64,000 nucleotides of DNA, taken from positions 40,435 to 104,434 of the forward strand of contig DIEX01000011.1 of assembly GCA_002418835.1 (NCBI GenBank), given 5' to 3'. A program made the translations under genes and the position numbers. Below the pieces are notes generated by a model that did no database searches, was not told where the DNA came from, and saw only the letters and a list, made by a program, of their open reading frames with translations. Source of the DNA: Spirochaetia bacterium UBA5763 (lineage in GTDB: Bacteria; Spirochaetota; UBA4802; UBA5550). Of this stretch, positions 3,829 to 62,436 are shown piece after piece. Position 1 is the stretch's first letter, and the number at the start of each line of letters is the position of its first letter.

Positions 3829-4725
3829 CTAATCCTTAAGCCTCGGATCAAGGACATCCCTGATCCCGTCACCCAGGAGGTTAAACCCGAGAACAACCAG
3901 AACTATTGCTATACCGGGGAATGTTACGATCCACCATGCATTGGAGACAAACTCACGGGCTGATGCAATCATAAGGCCCCACTCCGGTGTGGGGGGCTGC
4001 GCGCCGAGTCCCAGGAAGGAGAGTGCTGCTGATTCAATTATTGCGCTCCCCACGCCAAGGGTTGCCTGCACAATTATGGGAGCAAGACAGTTCGGAAGGA
4101 TTGACATGAACATAAGTTCCATGTTCCCCACACCGAGAGACCTCTCCGCTTCAACGTATTCAGCTTCTTTCTCGGCAAGAACAGAAGCCCTCATAATCCT
4201 TGTGTACTGCGGGAGACGGGCAATACCGATGGCAATCATGGCGTTAAGTAGAGTTGGGCCCAGAAGCGCCACAATAACAATGGTAAGGAGAATATACGGG
4301 AATGCCAGCATGATGTCAATTACCCTCATGGATATTCTGTCAAACCACCCGCCGTAGAAGCCGGAGATGAGCCCGATGAGAGATCCGAACACAAGGGATA
4401 TTGATACGGCAAAAAAACCTATAACAAGCGATATGCGGGAACCGTAGATAATACGTGAAAGGATGTCCCTGCCGAAATCATCTGTCCCCAGGATGTAGGG
4501 CCAGGAGAAGTAAGTCATTTTTCTCAGATCAATATTCTGAAGATAGGGATCAAAGGGCGCAACAACAGGCGCGAATACAGCAAGAAATACAAAAAATATG
4601 ATTATGTAAAGTCCGAACATGGCGGACCTGTTTTTCTTAAGGAGAAGCCAGTTCTCATACCAGATCGATTCAGCAGCGTTGTTCTCTGCATCATTACCGG
4701 CTTTAAATATCTTAATAGGATTCAT
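3829..4725 (-). CDS. oppC: Oligopeptide ABC transporter permease OppC
   Basis: 298 aa with multiple TM helices and a BPD-transporter (EAA-like) motif region. Sits between oppB and oppD. Confidence 0.85.
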   Translation of the reverse strand: MNPIKIFKAGNDAENNAAESIWYENWLLLKKNRSAMFGLYIIIFFVFLAVFAPVVAPFDPYLQNIDLRKMTYFSWPYILGTDDFGRDILSRIIYGSRISLVIGFFAVSISLVFGSLIGLISGFYGGWFDRISMRVIDIMLAFPYILLTIVIVALLGPTLLNAMIAIGIARLPQYTRIMRASVLAEKEAEYVEAERSLGVGNMELMFMSILPNCLAPIIVQATLGVGSAIIESAALSFLGLGAQPPTPEWGLMIASAREFVSNAWWIVTFPGIAIVLVVLGFNLLGDGIRDVLDPRLKD

Positions 4726-4743: not shown

Positions 4744-5760
4744 TTATTCTGTTCTAATTTTGGGATTGATTACTGAATAGAGTAGATCAACAAAGAGATT
4801 TATAATGACAAAACATGTTGATATCACTATTATTCCACCCTGCACTGCCGGAAAATCCCTTGATTCAATTGCATGATAGAGCCACTTACCTATCCCGGGC
4901 CAGGCAAAAATTGTTTCAGTAAGTATTGCTCCTGCCAGAAGCATCCCGAACTGGAGGCCTATTACAGTAATTACAGGGAGGAGAGCGTTACGCAGCGCGT
5001 ACTTGAATACCACCTTCCTCTCGGACATACCTGTGGCACGTGCTGTCTTGATGTAGTCCTGTTTCAGCACCTCAAGCATTGAGCTCCTTGTTATACGGGC
5101 AATAATCGCAAGCGGTATAGTGGCCAGCGTTACAGCAGGAAGAATCAGATGAGTCAGAGCTGATCCTAAAACTTTAGGGTCTCCTGTTTTAAAAATGTGT
5201 ATTATCCCGTCAAGTATGTAGAAATTTGTAATAGGGGTAAAATAATACCTTATATCCATTCTTCCCCCCGTGGGGAGGAGGTTCAGATTAACTGAAAATA
5301 TTATTATAAGCACAAGCCCGAGCCAGAATACCGGCATCGAAACTCCGAACAGTGCCCCGAACATTGAGGCATAGTCCCAGAAGGAGTACCTCTTTGTGGC
5401 TGAAATAACTCCAACAAATATTCCCAAAACTGATGCAAGGATCATTGAAAAAATAGCCAGTTCGATTGTGGCAGGGAAACGGGCTTTTATCTCATCTATA
5501 ACGTTCTGTCCTGTTTTGATCGATTTGCCGAAATCAAGCTGAACAACTTTTTTCAGGTATATGACATACTGAATATGCATAGGCTTGTCAAGGCCCAGTT
5601 CAGCATTCATCTTTTCAACAGCCTCTTTGTTTGCCCTTTCACCGAGAATTACCCTTGCAGGTTCGCCGGGAGAGAGCGCAAGCATGAAGAAGACAAGGGT
5701 GATCACTCCGAAAAGTGTTGGTATAAGGAGCCCGAGCCTTTTTAAAATAAATCTGTACAT
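4744..5760 (-). CDS. oppB: Oligopeptide ABC transporter permease OppB
   Basis: 338 aa polytopic permease of the DppB/OppB type. GGAG RBS upstream. Confidence 0.85.
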   Translation of the reverse strand: MYRFILKRLGLLIPTLFGVITLVFFMLALSPGEPARVILGERANKEAVEKMNAELGLDKPMHIQYVIYLKKVVQLDFGKSIKTGQNVIDEIKARFPATIELAIFSMILASVLGIFVGVISATKRYSFWDYASMFGALFGVSMPVFWLGLVLIIIFSVNLNLLPTGGRMDIRYYFTPITNFYILDGIIHIFKTGDPKVLGSALTHLILPAVTLATIPLAIIARITRSSMLEVLKQDYIKTARATGMSERKVVFKYALRNALLPVITVIGLQFGMLLAGAILTETIFAWPGIGKWLYHAIESRDFPAVQGGIIVISTCFVIINLFVDLLYSVINPKIRTE

Positions 5761-5818
5761 ATTAAAACTCCGTAAGACTTTGTTTTGCTTTAAAATAATG
5801 AAATATTATTTAATTCCC

Positions 5819-5953
5819 TGTCATTTCGAAGAAGCGGCAGCGACTGAGAAATCTCAATTACAGAATCAGTTTAAGAACAGAATTCACTGCAATTATTAAA
5901 TTATGCAATTGAGATTTCTCACCCGAAAAATTGAATAGGGTTCGAAATGACAT
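5819..5953. repeat. MITE-like element, copy A (~135 bp) with nested inverted repeats
   Basis: Terminal inverted repeats TGTCATTTCGAA / TTCGAAATGACA and inner inverted repeats TGAGAAATCTCAATT / AATTGAGATTTCTCA. Homologous to 13049-13158. Located between the oppA stop and the oppB start. Confidence 0.5.
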
Positions 5954-6001
5954 GTTGTAAACCATATTGTTTGCTGTTTAAACTATGTTTCTTAAAACAG
6001 C

Positions 6002-6027
6002 ATCATCCCCGCTTTCGCGGGGATGAT
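6002..6027 (-). terminator. Stem-loop (ATCATCCCCGC-TTTC-GCGGGGATGAT) 3' of oppA, a putative intra-operon terminator/attenuator
   Basis: 11 bp GC-rich perfect stem. On the minus strand it is followed by GCTGTTTTAAG (a short U-tract). Confidence 0.45.
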
Positions 6028-6044
6028 TACTAAATCAGTCCGGA

Positions 6045-7625
6045 CTATTTCTGAATCCAGACATCCCTGAATTCACGTTTTGACATTGGAGAAAGTTTGA
6101 AATCCATAACTGTTTTCTTCATAGGCTCAACAACAACAGAGTGAGCTAAGGGCACCCATGGAGCCTCTTCATGGAATATAACCTGTGCTTCTTTATAAAG
6201 CTTTATTCTCTTATCTTTATCAACAGTTTCTTTCGCCTGTGTTATGAGAGAGTTGAACTTCTCGTTTTTCCAGAACGCATAGTTCTGAGCAGGCTTGATT
6301 GTCGACTGTATTGAAAGAAGAACATAAAGGAAGTTGTCAGGATCTCCATTGTCACCTGTCCATCCTATAAGACACATGTCATGCTGGAGGTTATCCAGTT
6401 TATCAAGATATGTACCCCACTCATAAGAAACGATGTTAGCCTTAATGCCGACCTCTTTGAGCTGTGACTGCATAATCTCAGCAACTTTCTTCGCATTCGG
6501 ATTATACGGCCTTGATACCGGCATTGCCCAGAGAGTAGTTTCAAAACCGTTTTCAAGTCCCGCTTTCTTCAGAAGTTCTTTGGCAAGTTTAGGATCGTAT
6601 TTGTATTCCTGAACCGCATCATTATATGACCACATTGTAGGAGGGAGGGGGTTCTTTGCAGGCACACCGAGATTCCCGTAAACAGCCTTGATTATATCAG
6701 CTTTGTTTATTGCATGGTTAACAGCCTGACGTACAAGCTTATTGTCAAAGGGTTTTCTTGACTGGTTCATTGCCATGTAACCAACATTAAGGCCCGGTTG
6801 TTCAACTATCTTAAGTTTTGAATCAGCTTTTATATTCTCAATATCTTCGGGTGAAGGGAAGTCTATAATATCAACTTCACCTTTTTTGAGTGCAAGATAA
6901 CGTGCTGTAGGCTCAGGTATTACTTTCAGGATCAGCCTGTCGATATAAGCTTTTCTCCCCCAGTAATTATCGTTTCTTTCAAGTATTATTGAATCATCCT
7001 TGATCCACTGGACAAACTTGAAAGGGCCTGTACCGCATGCTGTACTTTTAAAATTTTCCTTCTCCTTTTCAGCAGCTGTTGGAGATACAATTGCAGCAAA
7101 CTGCATTGCAAGATTCGCGAGGAATGGAGCTTCTTTTTTCTTCAGTAAGATCTTAACCTTGTAATCATCCACTTTAACAACATCTTTAATGATATCATCC
7201 ATACCCATTGCGCTCCAGTATTTCCATGGACCGTATTTATATGCAGGGTGATCTTTCTTAAACTGACGCGCCAATGAATAGACAACAGCGTCCGCATTAA
7301 AGTCTGTGCCGTCATGGAACTTAACGCCTTTTCTGAGATAGAATGTAAATTCAAGACCGCTTGCTGCAACATCCCATTTTTCAGCGAGTCCCGGTTCAAT
7401 ATCTGTTGTGCCGTTTATAAAAGACACAAGATTGTCATAGACATTGTCCGCGATATAGAACGATTCCCCGTCAGTTTCCCTTGCAGGGTCAAGACCGCTG
7501 GCATCACCTGAACGGCCGAACACCAGTACACCGCCTGCCTTATCGCCGCTCTTACCGCATGATGTTAAAGAAAAGACCATGAGTGAAGCAAGAAGCAGAA
7601 CAAGCAATAGACTTATCCTTTTCAT
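6045..7625 (-). CDS. oppA: Oligopeptide ABC transporter substrate-binding lipoprotein OppA
   Basis: SBP family 5 fold. Start set at the internal ATG (MKRISLLLVLLLASLMVFSLTSC lipoprotein signal) with an AGGAG RBS. The upstream extension in the ORF track lacks an RBS. Confidence 0.85.
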   Translation of the reverse strand: MKRISLLLVLLLASLMVFSLTSCGKSGDKAGGVLVFGRSGDASGLDPARETDGESFYIADNVYDNLVSFINGTTDIEPGLAEKWDVAASGLEFTFYLRKGVKFHDGTDFNADAVVYSLARQFKKDHPAYKYGPWKYWSAMGMDDIIKDVVKVDDYKVKILLKKKEAPFLANLAMQFAAIVSPTAAEKEKENFKSTACGTGPFKFVQWIKDDSIILERNDNYWGRKAYIDRLILKVIPEPTARYLALKKGEVDIIDFPSPEDIENIKADSKLKIVEQPGLNVGYMAMNQSRKPFDNKLVRQAVNHAINKADIIKAVYGNLGVPAKNPLPPTMWSYNDAVQEYKYDPKLAKELLKKAGLENGFETTLWAMPVSRPYNPNAKKVAEIMQSQLKEVGIKANIVSYEWGTYLDKLDNLQHDMCLIGWTGDNGDPDNFLYVLLSIQSTIKPAQNYAFWKNEKFNSLITQAKETVDKDKRIKLYKEAQVIFHEEAPWVPLAHSVVVEPMKKTVMDFKLSPMSKREFRDVWIQK

Positions 7626-8197
7626 ACACAACTCCTGAATTAATTTTAATTTTTTTTTGTACGTGCTGATAAAAAAAACTATACTGCTTTCCGGGAAATC
7701 AGTATTAGAGGCAAACATTACAGAAAAGCGCCCCATACTCCCACGGGTATCCGGAAAAATCTCTATTATTCCGGAATGCCTGCCACAAAATGCTCTTTAT
7801 ATCAGCATATACATTATTAAACTTATAATTCATGCAGAAAACAATTATAATCAAGCTTTTTTTAAACAAAACCCTTTCGCAGCTTTTGTTTAAAAAAATT
7901 CAGCAGCAGTATCAATACAACAGTGAAATTACTTTTTTTCCTTTTTTTCTTTTTTTAATTGCCATATTATAGATATTGGAAGGATTATACAGGTACAATT
8001 TAATCCTTTACACTATCCATATCCGGGTAGTCATAATTAAATATCCTGAAACGCTGCTGGGAGATATCCAGACAACATGCCCTCAGTAAAAAACCCGGAC
8101 GTAGCGCTTAACAGGCGTTAGCGGGATTTCTGCGATCGGGAGTTTTTTTGTGACACTTTAATTACTACGCAGAACAGTGCTGTCAGGGGGGTTTCTT

Positions 8198-12903: not shown

Positions 12904-13048
12904 TATTCATCCCCCTGTCTGCCGCAAAAAAATATATAAAACTTATTATAATAAACTTAAATATCATTCTTGACAAATAATCAAATCATGGAATCAATTC
13001 TATCTTAATTTTATTATAGCATTTTACGATTGAATTATAACATTAAAT

Positions 13049-13158
13049 TGTCATTTTGAAGAAGCGTAAGCAACTGAGACGACCGTAGTAGAGCTGTGAG
13101 CTAATCTATCTTTTAAAAATAATTTTTTAGATTTCTCACATGCGTTCGAAATGACATT
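13049..13158. repeat. MITE-like element, copy B (~110 bp), a diverged copy of 5819-5953
   Basis: TGTCATTTTGAAGAAGCGTAAGCAACTGAG... ...AGATTTCTCACATGCGTTCGAAATGACA. Shares the terminal inverted repeats and 5' ~30 nt with copy A; the inner left arm is degenerate. Confidence 0.45.
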
Positions 13159-13347
13159 GCCCTAATCATTTCGTAAATCGCTATAGCTGTATTAATTGCA
13201 GCGTTAAAAAAACTCATTATTCATATATTCACAAAAACTTTTTTTTAAAATTAGCAGGCATTCCACAGTGTCAGTAATGCCGGAGGGGTTATATGATCCC
13301 GAACATATGCTGACCAGCCTGAATCAAAAACTCTGACGAGGTGGTCA

Positions 13348-59607: not shown

Positions 59608-62436
59608 TTAAAAATCGTTCCTGGCAATAACTACAGATGAGTTAATCAGGCTTACCTTGTATTTTATGCCGCAGTAATCACGGTGTTCTTTAAGGAGAGA
59701 TTCCATTTCTGTGCGGGCTTTGAGTATTTTGTTTCTGATACGGGTGATTACGCTTCTCATATCCTTGCCGTACCACTTCATCTGGCTTTCATGCAGGTCG
59801 AGTTTCTCTTCAAGTTCTTTGATCTGCTTTGTGTAAGATTCTTTGATCTTTTCTATTTCAGGATCTATCTGTATATCAATATTTTCATTAAGGTCAAAAA
59901 GTCTGTCATTGATACGTTCCATGATCTTTACCCTGGCAGCATCGAAACAGCATGATACGTTACACCTCACATTCTCAATTGCACCATAATGTTCAGACAG
60001 AGGGATATTGTGCATAAAATCATGATCCATAAACTGCTCTTCAATTCTCTTAACTTCATACTCAGAAAGTACCGACCCCTTTTCAACAAGTACCGGAAAA
60101 AACTGATGTGTAACTGAAGCTGAAGTAAATTCGACAAGGTAGTTAAAAATCATTCCATCAAAAGGTGTATCGCTCTTCATGAAAATCACACCGGACTCAC
60201 CTCCGAAACAGTCGCTGTTGCAGTAATCGATGATCCTGTCAACTGTGCTGTGCCCGAAAGCCAGAAACTCAAGGCTTTCGTCCTCCAGCGCCCTCTCGCT
60301 GTCAAATGTGCCGTATCTGATCTGGGAGTCATCACCTGAACCGGAGAAGACCCTGTAAAGTCCCGCTCTGCTGTTTTTCTTTGAAATCAGACCCTGCGCA
60401 TAAGAATCCTCATCCATGAAATCACTTATAAATTTTTCAATCCGCCGGTTTGTGAAACTGCGATCTTTCAGGGTAACCTTGTAGTAGTCATCATAATTAA
60501 AATCCATACGCCCTGCCACAGTCAGTTCAGAAAGTTTTTCAAAGCTCTGCCGCGCGTTCTCTATTCTGTCAGAGAGCTCAGACTCAACATCCTTCTTCTT
60601 CTTTCTTCCGGTGGCAAGTTCCATGAAAAGTGTATTAAGATTAACCTCATCTTCAATCTGACCCAGCATAATGTCAGGTGTGCCTATGGACTCCTCAAAT
60701 ATCTTAAGCTTCTCAGTGAGTACTTCAAGTACACGCTCCGCCACAGTCCCCCGTGTAGAGAAGTTATATATATGCACATCATTGGGCTGTCCGAATCTGT
60801 GAATACGGCCGATCCTCTGTTCTATCTTCAGCGGTGACCACGGCAAATCATAATTTATGAGAATGTCGCAGAACTGCATATTGCGCCCCTCTCCGCCCGC
60901 CTCTGTCGCTATTATGATCTCCACTTCATTCTTGAATTTGAGTATTGCCTCCTCCTTCTCGTCCCTGTTCATTGAGCCGTTAAAAGCGACCCTGCTGAAT
61001 CCGGAAAGAATGTCCATGAGGTAATCCTGTGTAGTCCTGAACTGCGTGAAAATCAGAAACTTTTCGTGCCCCTTTTTCTTTAAATCTTTTATGAGCCTTA
61101 CAAGCTTTTCACCCTTTTTGTTCGATTCGATCTGCGATGCGAGATTAACAAGCCGGTCGATAGTGAGTATCTCCAGCCTCAGTTCATCAATTGTCTTTTT
61201 AACAGTGAGTTCCGCATTCTCATCAAGTTCTTCAAGCTCAGATAATGTTTCATTATCAAAGCATCCGGTATTGAATTCCACGTATGCATTATTCAGAGAC
61301 TCGGCTTTAACCAGAAGATCTTTCAGCCGCGCAGACCTGTTCCTCAGTGCAACTAACAGAGCGTATGACGAAGAATCCAGGAGTTTCTGGAAAACAGTCA
61401 TTACAAATCCCACGGCACGGTTCTCAGACTGAAGAGCGCGGTTAAACTCCTCTGCCACGTATTTAGTTGTCTCGTCATAGAGGAACCGCTCGTCATCATA
61501 GAGATCAAACCTGATGGTGCGGGCATGGCGTTTTGTAAATCCTCCGACCTCGTTCTTGGTACGGCGGATTACAACCTGGTCCAGTTTTCTTTTAAGTTCA
61601 GAGAGGTCTGCTCCGTCAAGACAGAACTGGTTGTAGAATGACTGGTACGGCCCAAGTATATTTTTATCAACGAGTGCAATGAGATAGTAAAGTTCTTCAA
61701 GCTTTCCGCGGAAAGGGGTCGCCGAAAGAAGGAGGAGCGACTTTGTCCTGACCGCCACCTGCTCCGCCATACTGTATGCCAGTGTTGAACTGTTGGCGTC
61801 TCTCCTGAGCCTGTGTGCCTCATCAAAAATAACAAAGTCCCATGAGCAGTGAAGCAGATCCTCCTGGAAGTCCTTCCCCTTAATAAAGTCAAGAGAACAG
61901 ATCAGACGATCGTATACCTTCCAGGGATTCCCCCCTTCACCGGCAATCTGCGAAGCCTTCTTCAGAAGCTTCCTGTCCATGATTATAAATTTCTCGTTGA
62001 ATTTGCTCTCCATCTCATTCTGCCACTGGAAAAGCAGCGACGCAGGACAGATGATTATTATCCTTTTATAATTCTGCCTGTAGATCATCTCCTTGATCAC
62101 AAGACCCGCTTCAATAGTTTTACCAAGCCCCACCTCATCAGCAATGAGAAATCTCTGCTTGAATGAATTTACAATCCTGTGTGTGCTCTCCACCTGATGC
62201 GCTAAAATCCGGGTCCTGGAATTTGATAAAGAGAGTATTTTATTGTATGCATATGCAAGTTTTAATATAAATGACTCTGCTTTAAGTATAAACCTCCTGC
62301 CATGCGGCAACGGAGAGCTCTCGAAAAGTTCTCTGATGCGCCCCTCATTTTGTATGATCACCTCACCCGCCGGAATATTTTCATCCGGTTGATAAGTAAA
62401 GAGATCTGGCAGGATTAAATCCGCTTCAGTATTCAT
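59608..62436 (-). CDS. SNF2-family ATPase, RapA/HepA-like (RNA polymerase-associated remodeller-like)
   Basis: 942 aa. Motif I LIADEVGLGKTIEAG, DEAH-box (IFDEAHRL), helicase-C (LPWSPLKIEQRIGRIHRFGQ), and a ~330 aa C-terminal domain of unknown type. Confidence 0.75.
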   Translation of the reverse strand: MNTEADLILPDLFTYQPDENIPAGEVIIQNEGRIRELFESSPLPHGRRFILKAESFILKLAYAYNKILSLSNSRTRILAHQVESTHRIVNSFKQRFLIADEVGLGKTIEAGLVIKEMIYRQNYKRIIIICPASLLFQWQNEMESKFNEKFIIMDRKLLKKASQIAGEGGNPWKVYDRLICSLDFIKGKDFQEDLLHCSWDFVIFDEAHRLRRDANSSTLAYSMAEQVAVRTKSLLLLSATPFRGKLEELYYLIALVDKNILGPYQSFYNQFCLDGADLSELKRKLDQVVIRRTKNEVGGFTKRHARTIRFDLYDDERFLYDETTKYVAEEFNRALQSENRAVGFVMTVFQKLLDSSSYALLVALRNRSARLKDLLVKAESLNNAYVEFNTGCFDNETLSELEELDENAELTVKKTIDELRLEILTIDRLVNLASQIESNKKGEKLVRLIKDLKKKGHEKFLIFTQFRTTQDYLMDILSGFSRVAFNGSMNRDEKEEAILKFKNEVEIIIATEAGGEGRNMQFCDILINYDLPWSPLKIEQRIGRIHRFGQPNDVHIYNFSTRGTVAERVLEVLTEKLKIFEESIGTPDIMLGQIEDEVNLNTLFMELATGRKKKKDVESELSDRIENARQSFEKLSELTVAGRMDFNYDDYYKVTLKDRSFTNRRIEKFISDFMDEDSYAQGLISKKNSRAGLYRVFSGSGDDSQIRYGTFDSERALEDESLEFLAFGHSTVDRIIDYCNSDCFGGESGVIFMKSDTPFDGMIFNYLVEFTSASVTHQFFPVLVEKGSVLSEYEVKRIEEQFMDHDFMHNIPLSEHYGAIENVRCNVSCCFDAARVKIMERINDRLFDLNENIDIQIDPEIEKIKESYTKQIKELEEKLDLHESQMKWYGKDMRSVITRIRNKILKARTEMESLLKEHRDYCGIKYKVSLINSSVVIARNDF

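Follow-up and report, generated by a model that had tools for sequence, protein, structure and literature searches.

In Spirochaetia bacterium UBA5763, the gap between oppA and oppB of an oligopeptide-type ATP-binding cassette (ABC) operon contains a structured 134-nt repeat with no open reading frame (ORF), here called element A (5819-5952 of the window, the whole 64,000-nt stretch of contig DIEX01000011.1 that was analysed). Its inverted repeats, the enrichment of its terminal 12-mer and an architecture shared with other loci define it as an inverted dimer of two TGTC-tagged hairpin modules, with the tags facing outward. Element A is probably a gene-less dimer derived by internal deletion from elements that carry an ssn gene, comparable to a REPIN (a doublet of repetitive extragenic palindromes, REPs) or a miniature transposable element with inverted repeats (MITE); it would belong to the superfamily of CGTC/TGTC-tagged REPs, which overlaps the Ssn-related motifs (SRMs), as passenger DNA on which an Ssn-type nuclease acts. 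By its sequence features, the family appears to fall into two overlapping known groups, the CGTC/TGTC-tagged REPs and the SRMs, as a variant that the published SRM pattern misses. Element A is best read as the passenger of a selfish or domesticated DNA system and not as a purpose-built regulator of opp. The evidence comes from its anatomy, from a repeat family present in several phyla, from GIY-YIG genes bracketed by the same modules, from the homology of their product to a presumed SsnA, and from polymorphism of the opp gap among relatives.

Structure of element A

The two ends of element A form an outer inverted repeat, TGTCATTTCGAA at 5819-5830 and TTCGAAATGACA at 5941-5952, complementary at 12 of 12 positions. 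Nested within it is an inner inverted repeat of 22 nt (5845-5866 and 5900-5921, 91% complementary). Read from the tag inward, each module has the order TGTC-ATTTC-GAA-(variable loop)-TGA-GAAAT-CTC, comprising an unpaired 5' TGTC tag, a 5-bp ATTTC/GAAAT stem, a purine-rich GAA...TGA junction, a variable loop insert and a CTC tail. Judging from its letters, the junction can form tandem G-A pairs. The left module (5819-5859, plus strand) runs through these parts in turn and then into a repeat extension; its loop insert, GAAGCGGCAGCGAC at 5831-5844, contains a GC-GGCA-GC mini-hairpin. The right module (5910-5952, minus strand), assigned from sequence and fold, reads TGTC-ATTTC-GAA-CCCTATTCAATTTTTCGGG-TGA-GAAAT-CTC, and its insert at 5922-5940 is a CCC/GGG hairpin. 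The tags occupy 5819-5822 and, on the other strand, 5952-5949; a second copy in the window, element B (13049-13156), is tagged likewise. Loop inserts in the window modules measure 6, 14 and 19 nt, and the tails of the left and right modules of A and of the right module of B are CTC or CTA. Between the modules of element A lies a spacer (5860-5909), the outer parts of which (to 5866 and from 5900) prolong the inner inverted repeat; gene-carrying relatives have the ssn ORF at this position.

With up to one mismatch allowed, the outer 12-mer occurs four times in the 64 kb, each time as an end of copy A or B, compared with a mean of 0.62 in shuffled sequences, 0 of 100 of which reached four. As RNA, one strand of element A folds at -47.4 kcal/mol (z -7.1 relative to shuffles) and the other at -41.6 kcal/mol (z -5.8), and as single-stranded DNA (ssDNA) both strands fold at about -26.5 kcal/mol (z -6.1). 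In the minimum-energy ssDNA fold of a module, the TGTC tag is unpaired.

An earlier note on this DNA had described a structured element with nested inverted repeats in the oppA-oppB gap and a second, diverged copy, had regarded the element as non-autonomous and repeated, and had seen no matching transposase in the window. These points are borne out, with the end of element A placed at 5952 in place of 5953 and that of copy B at 13156 in place of 13158, with a longer inner repeat (22 nt) in A and a decayed left inner repeat in B. Folding of both strands, which the note had proposed as a check, puts element A well beyond shuffles (z -5.8 to -7.1).

Several other identities were considered. The GAA...TGA junction was weighed, from its sequence, as a hammerhead or a K-turn and neither was accepted, the CUGANGA core being missing and no 3-nt bulge being present. 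An integron attC site was also set aside, having a different consensus and belonging to cassette arrays, of which there is none here. Rfam gave 0 matches at the gathering threshold over the whole window, and a permissive search of the gap returned only noise (E >= 0.27). A literature search with sequence strings retrieved primer matches only.

A repeat family in about eight phyla

One genome per species was scanned, with only the two outer 12-mers, 80-110 nt apart, as the query. More than 117 loci were recovered, against about 0.5 expected by chance by our own arithmetic, and their hosts span about eight phyla: Bacteroidota (many of them Mucilaginibacter), Chloroflexota, Spirochaetota, Patescibacteria, Ignavibacteriota, Calditrichota, Balneolota and Pseudomonadota. 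The "small repeat family" of the earlier note is therefore much larger than supposed, with the two-armed architecture shared by all these loci. The motif GAGAAATC, which is absent from the search pattern, was present in both arms of 94 of the 123 listed elements and in one arm of a further 21. Among the listed elements the ends are conserved and the centre is hypervariable, with loop inserts of 6-47 nt. The pair of left and right loop inserts found in element A recurs in the Spirochaetota copies L008, L024, L094 and L108.

The copies are mostly intergenic, only 4 of the 123 listed elements overlapping a long ORF. Their median distance is 75 nt to the 3' ends of genes and 181 nt to the 5' ends, and the gene pairs flanking them are convergent in 33 cases, tandem in 46 and divergent in 17, a genomic habit typical of REP-like DNA. 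Among family members with distinguishable arms and co-directional flanking genes, two are in sense and three in antisense orientation. Neither window copy has a target duplication, copy A being flanked by CCC and TGT and copy B by AAT and TTG.

All-against-all clustering of the ORFs at the 117 listed loci revealed no recurrent transposase of either the DDE or the Y1/RAYT (REP-associated tyrosine transposase) type. A protein of about 100 aa was found in four loci of different lineages, and matched the GIY-YIG domain (Pfam PF01541) with E values of 1e-13 to 1e-15.

A complete module is often preceded by two to four tandem partial copies, each limited to the tag and the opening 20-30 nt of a module (TGTCATTTCGAA with some 10-15 nt more), as at L018 4327-4845, L079 3415-3460 and 4258-4290, L155 1371-1440, L157 1418-1457 and L158 1425-1470. 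They resemble "stutter" footprints on the side where nicking is predicted. In locus L119 (675-2806), from a metagenome-assembled genome of Ignavibacteria, an element is split by about 2 kb containing a 205-aa ORF, AbiEii-like by eye, and a 99-aa partner ORF. From their sequences the two may be a toxin-antitoxin pair, and the element may be cargo-carrying or disrupted.

Ssn-type GIY-YIG genes flanked by the same modules

The gene-carrying relatives have ends near-identical to those of the dimers and, in the position of the spacer, a single-domain GIY-YIG ORF of 96-118 aa, which is the only ORF that they hold. Elements of this kind with element A-like ends were found at L115 (1283-1679), L125, L157 (1458-1802, 345 bp), L102 and L053, and modules near-identical to those of the window also flank the Ssn-type gene of L158. 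The left module of element A is the left end of the L157 unit (1458-1485) save one loop indel, and the right module of element B is the left end of the ssn-carrying element at L158 save one base. The ORF of the L157 unit begins directly behind its left module and ends in a stop codon that overlaps the right one. The L125 gene is bracketed precisely by TGTCATTTCGA...GAGAAATCT and AGATTTCTC...TCGAAATGACA.

Gene-less dimers adjoin some of these units. At L115 the ORF of a 400-bp element occupies exactly the spacer position, and adjoining dimers of 103-114 nt match the subterminal sequence of that element. The dimers at L053 keep the last codons of the GIY-YIG ORF, and at L102 a gene cassette lies beside, and partly inside, dimers. 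Because subterminal sequence is common to the dimers and the adjacent gene-carrying units, the gene-less dimers are read as deletion derivatives. At L121 (181-700), at least four near-identical heterodimer elements stand in tandem directly upstream of an ssn-type gene, with ATCTC/GAGAT stems on the left and ATTTC/GAAAT stems on the right.

The association was also approached from the protein side, using 65 metagenome loci with enough flanking sequence, chosen by their GIY-YIG protein, and scoring hairpins within 200 nt of the gene. Of the 65 loci, 54 had an outward-facing GTC-tagged hairpin upstream (7.7 with shuffled flanks), 56 had one downstream (9.1 with shuffled flanks) and 48 had one on each side (1.2 with shuffled flanks). 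At least seven stem sequences occur (ATTTC, ATTGC, ATTCC, ATCCT, ATCCC, ATTCT and ATCTC), each with its exact complement, and this covariation supports the hairpin.

The 96-aa L157 protein is 44% identical to a 94-aa protein of Neisseria gonorrhoeae (pairwise E 3e-26). The latter is unannotated in its record; its length and GIY-YIG sequence, together with canonical NTS repeats on the flanks of its gene, are the grounds for taking it to be the SsnA orthologue. At E <= 1e-5, the protein family comprises 7,991 clusters among 8,000 candidates, named only "GIY-YIG nuclease family protein". A search of NCBIfam with the Ssn-like protein gave only a sub-threshold match, to the N-terminus of a group I intron endonuclease, and a search of the PDB gave no solved structure. 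The contigs with ssn-type genes are mostly very short (0.5-3 kb), which fits assemblies broken at the repeated flanks; gene catalogues may therefore under-represent the genomic context of these genes.

Comparison with Ssn-related motifs and CGTC-tagged REPs

SsnA is a 94-aa single-domain GIY-YIG enzyme, the gene of which is flanked by NTS/SRM repeats (Chenal 2025, Nat Commun, PMC11893778). The enzyme recognises the NTS hairpin by binding it and cuts ssDNA at a point right upstream of the tag, but is inactive on double-stranded DNA and RNA; the authors remark on the insertion sequence-like layout of repeat, gene and repeat, and leave open the role of Ssn outside Neisseria (PMC11893778). The elements described here resemble this system in having a 5' HGTC-tagged hairpin with a short tail and many intergenic copies, and in the way that copies flank a single-domain GIY-YIG gene of about 95 aa in the same insertion sequence-like order. 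They differ in the stem, which has five AT-rich base pairs followed by GAA/TGA and loops of 6-47 nt in the family of element A, compared with 8-9 GC-rich base pairs and short loops in SRMs. The published SRM pattern is HGTCWYN(0-2)YYVSBRHN(0-5)WNVSBRGN(0-2)RNCYNB, to which the canonical NTS conforms when checked by hand. A keyword search of the main text of PMC11893778 found no mention of gene-less dimers, deletion derivatives or cargo-carrying forms, and a literature search found no follow-up to that paper.

CGTC-tagged REPs, described in Spirochaetes and Bacteroidetes, often have TGTC as their tag, a stem beginning with AT and short tails, and occur mostly as inverted dimers (Di Nocera 2013, PMC3733652). 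The families CGTC-1 to CGTC-4 include dRS3 of Neisseria and RPE-4 and RPE-6 of Rickettsia, with no dedicated transposase and no tyrosine transposase flanked by CGTC-type repeats (PMC3733652). The window copies share with them the TGTC tag, the AT-first stem, the short tail and the inverted dimer with a spacer of 20-100 nt, and both lie in intergenic gaps. Some CGTC dimers are, moreover, nested in larger palindromes, as is copy B. The CGTC REPs have an uninterrupted stem of 8-9 bp, a loop of 4-5 nt and the 3-nt tail CCA, whereas the window modules have an interrupted stem of 5 bp, short of that 8-9 bp, with long and variable loops and the tails CTC or CTA. No dedicated enzyme was found for the CGTC REPs in that paper, whereas a GIY-YIG partner is present both here and in the work of Chenal 2025.

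The oppA-oppB gap in relatives

The operon lies on the minus strand, where it encodes a binding protein, two permeases and two ATPases. By its OppB homologues, the window falls in Spirochaetota. By Pfam, its first gene is oppA-like (6045-7736, SBP_bac_5) and is followed by an oppB-like permease gene (4744-5760, BPD_transp_1) and then by oppC, oppD and oppF, the second permease gene occupying 3829-4725. The intergenic region between oppA and oppB (5761-6044, minus strand, 284 nt) holds, besides element A, a terminator-like hairpin and a small inverted repeat of 11 nt. The hairpin, the GC-rich structure of the earlier note, lies outside the repeat element at 6002-6027 on the minus strand. It reads ATCATCCCCGC-GAAA-GCGGGGATGAT from 6027 to 6002, followed on the opp sense strand by the T-run GCTGTTTT, lies 17 nt past the oppA stop codon and was scored as an intrinsic terminator in a terminator scan. 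An alternative reading as a degenerate CGTC-1-type REP, suggested by its AT-first stem and GAAA loop, was rejected: it has no GTC tag, no second occurrence in the window and a score that marks it as a terminator.

The gap was compared among relatives ordered by OppB identity. In the 96% relative (L215) it measures 221 nt and the terminator-like hairpin is kept, differing by one compensatory change (C-G to T-A) and a single G-T wobble. Element A is replaced there by a dimer with ATTGC/GCAAT stems and other loop inserts (L215 1352-1469), and the flank proximal to the ribosome-binding site is identical to that of the window; the combination suggests replacement and not divergence. The 89% relative has a gap of 271 nt with the hairpin kept and no tagged hairpin, and at 88% and 85% identity the gap measures 138 and 71 nt, respectively, with another hairpin and T-run and no tagged hairpin. 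The hairpin at 6002-6027 is kept in both L215 and L218 and is common to the three closest relatives. The recurring feature after oppA is thus the terminator-like hairpin, and the hairpin at 6002-6027 is likely the real attenuator of the operon. That the dimer is present, absent or replaced among these gaps indicates a permissive site at which it was inserted, or replaced another, in a lineage-specific way. Absence from close relatives, which the earlier note had named as counting against its reading, applies at 89%, 88% and 85% identity, and at 96% a different dimer stands in the same place.

Minor features of the gap include the 11-nt inverted repeat, TGCTGTTTAAA / TTAAAACAGCA at 5972-6002, which lies between the terminator hairpin and element A and overlaps the terminator T-run. 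The terminal ATGACA of element A is a possible -35 hexamer, with CATTAT 18 nt downstream towards oppB (5795-5824, minus strand); promoter-like matches are no commoner than in shuffles.

Alternative explanations

The earlier note had raised a regulatory role. In this reading element A would be a cis-acting RNA selected to set the oppA:oppBCDF ratio, whether as attenuator, RNase barrier or mRNA stabiliser. The REP stabilisers between malE and malF of Escherichia coli occupy a comparable place between the binding-protein and permease genes of an ABC operon, and operon-internal REP-type elements are known to stabilise upstream mRNA (PMC3733652). Element A does lie inside the operon transcript, downstream of oppA, and strong folds are predicted for the element (z -7.1, as above) and for the whole gap (-89.5 kcal/mol, z -7.3). 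We consider this role unlikely, as conservation lends it no support: the element is missing from the gap in the relatives at 85-89% OppB identity, and is represented by a different variant at 96%. In contrast to the malE-malF case, the feature shared among close relatives is the separate terminator hairpin, kept with a compensatory change in the closest of them and replaced by another hairpin and T-run in the distant ones, so that attenuation is already provided. Copy B and other members occur in unrelated gaps and in both orientations, and no member of Rfam matches. The polymorphism among relatives, together with the mixed orientation, argues against a selected, strand-specific RNA role. That element A is instead an independent small-RNA gene, or a structured non-coding RNA of an undescribed kind, is scarcely credible. 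The strong structure predicted for both strands would suit such a gene; equal structure on the two strands follows from the near-palindromic symmetry of the element, the centre of which is hypervariable and the ends conserved. Rfam gave no match at either threshold, promoter-like matches stay at shuffle level, and SsnA is inactive on RNA (PMC11893778).

Among DNA-level explanations, the earlier description as MITE-like stands insofar as element A is a non-autonomous repeat. Like Correia elements of Neisseria, ERIC and RUP, which span 100-150 nt, it is small, multicopy and non-coding, has terminal inverted repeats (TG...CA), lies between genes or within an operon and could form hairpins in mRNA. 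A classical MITE, in the sense of an insertion sequence with an internal deletion that a DDE transposase, recognising the terminal inverted repeats, mobilises in trans, has almost nothing to recommend it here: neither copy has a TA or other direct target duplication, no parent with a DDE or serine transposase and no recurrent transposase emerged from the ORF clustering of the 117 listed loci, and the gene that does recur beside the repeats encodes a GIY-YIG nuclease, alone in its elements. The arms are, furthermore, hairpin modules with covarying stems, which would be unexpected in a simple protein-binding repeat. The Cardinium MITE was also considered as a relative and set aside as irrelevant, since it derives from IS982. 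A closer parallel is found in the REPIN-RAYT system, in which two inverted hairpin repeats form a long hairpin, many intergenic copies without a gene (often near 3' gene ends) accompany loci where the same repeats flank a single gene for a nuclease of ssDNA hairpins, and no target is duplicated. That element A is itself a classical REPIN, kept by a RAYT of the IS200/IS605 family, is nonetheless very improbable. REPINs have a GTAG tag and an HUH/Y1 enzyme, whereas here the tag is TGTC and the flanked genes encode enzymes of the unrelated GIY-YIG superfamily; no Y1 transposase recurs at the 117 listed loci, and no tyrosine transposase was found flanked by CGTC-type repeats in PMC3733652.

Proposed mechanism and significance

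For the preferred reading, in which element A is a gene-less derivative of ssn-carrying elements, a mechanism can be drawn by analogy with SsnA of Neisseria (PMC11893778). Element A would act as DNA and not as RNA. Once the region becomes single-stranded, during replication, repair or DNA uptake, each strand would show one tag-first module, and an Ssn encoded elsewhere in the genome would bind the tag and hairpin and nick the strand a few nucleotides 5' of the tag. The nicks are predicted to fall just beyond the two ends of the dimer, at about 5815/5816 (top strand) and 5955/5956 (bottom strand). Copying or repair initiated at such nicks would spread, replace or remove dimers at permissive intergenic sites, in this case the stretch that separates the terminator of oppA from the ribosome-binding site of oppB. 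Where opp transcription reads through, the element would form a passenger hairpin of 134 nt in the mRNA, and any influence on the stability or decay of that mRNA would be a side effect.

A number of results weigh against this reading. To our knowledge, mobility of Ssn elements has never been demonstrated, and no target duplication was found. From the terminator to the ribosome-binding site the relatives do not align, and no clean empty-site junction for element A was found. In the 64-kb window, a hidden Markov model search with E values up to 1 found no ssn homologue, and no spirochaete-named protein is among the best 120 homologues of the L157 protein; the cognate nuclease of the host is for these reasons only putative. 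The published SRM pattern matches neither strand of the window (0 of the 4 modules), and only 1 of the 132 tagged-hairpin flanks in this GIY-YIG branch. The tags point outward from the gene in this branch (48 of 65 loci) and inward in Neisseria, as in the N. gonorrhoeae locus L223 (250-720), where the NTS tags point at the presumed ssnA gene; the predicted nick sites therefore lie on opposite sides of the hairpin in the two arrangements. As isolated ssDNA, single modules fold at -1.8 to -3.7 kcal/mol, which is shuffle-like, compared with -8.9 kcal/mol for the Neisseria NTS. The ssDNA hairpin of the whole dimer is far more stable than the single modules, and would bury the tags.

A bolder proposal, which we put forward tentatively and judge somewhat more likely to fail than to hold, is that units of tag-hairpin, ssn and hairpin-tag, from 345 bp upwards, and their gene-less dimers are still active transposable elements, the sole "transposase" of which is an ssDNA nuclease of about 96 aa with a GIY-YIG domain. 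Such elements would spread across phyla and carry cargo, and at favoured intergenic sites one would take the place of another; the spacer between two inward-facing tags, where both strands get nicked, may be such a site. The SRM motif would miss this branch, and the element in the opp gap would be a recent non-autonomous insertion.

The link between the repeat and the nuclease was already published in 2025, and the function of Ssn outside Neisseria and the mobility of the repeats are stated by those authors as open. To this the present analysis adds Ssn-type genes of a very large branch, with about 8,000 clusters of proteins from a single search, flanked by hairpins invisible to the published pattern, so that current SRM censuses are likely undercounts. 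It also adds dimers that derive by deletion, an element split by a toxin-antitoxin-like pair, and a swap of variants in the opp gap at 96% OppB identity. With an element of 345 bp and a protein of 96 aa, the question of whether Ssn is a transposase-like enzyme becomes directly testable. In annotating this genome, the opp-operon structure should be recorded as repeat DNA and not as a regulator. The window locus itself is ordinary repeat DNA, and its relatives include compact candidates for the question of an Ssn transposon.

Copy B and its composite unit

Element B (13049-13156) is a decayed dimer of 108 nt. Its left inner repeat is lost and its right module, TGTCATTTCGAACGCATGTGAGAAATCTA on the minus strand, is intact; to judge by this decay, it appears to be an older dimer than A. 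No third copy was found in the 64 kb, a possible one at 62145 proving to be a chance 11-mer inside a 942-aa ORF. A search for the empty site of copy B by way of exact RsmE matches led back to the same strain alone.

Comparison of the flanks of B with those of L024, L028, L094, L005 and L049 delimits a composite unit at 13015-13185. It is bounded by a further inverted repeat, TATAGCATTTTACGATTGAATTA at 13015-13037 with its partner at 13162-13185, about 10 nt beyond each TGTC end, and because this outer repeat frames the dimer, the B-type repeated unit is about 171 nt long. The outer-repeat motif has one match in the window, against 0.01 expected. The five Spirochaetota/Leptospirales copies compared also carry it, with the consensus TATAGCATTTTACGAaTGAATTA, and the outer palindrome beside the spirochaete copies is TATAGCATTTTACGAATGAATTA; element A has only a weak trace of the motif. 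The motif could be a preferred target or a piece of a composite element. It resembles a partial Xa-type module with its tag inward, Xa being the GAAGCG..AGCGAC loop insert present in the left arm of element A.

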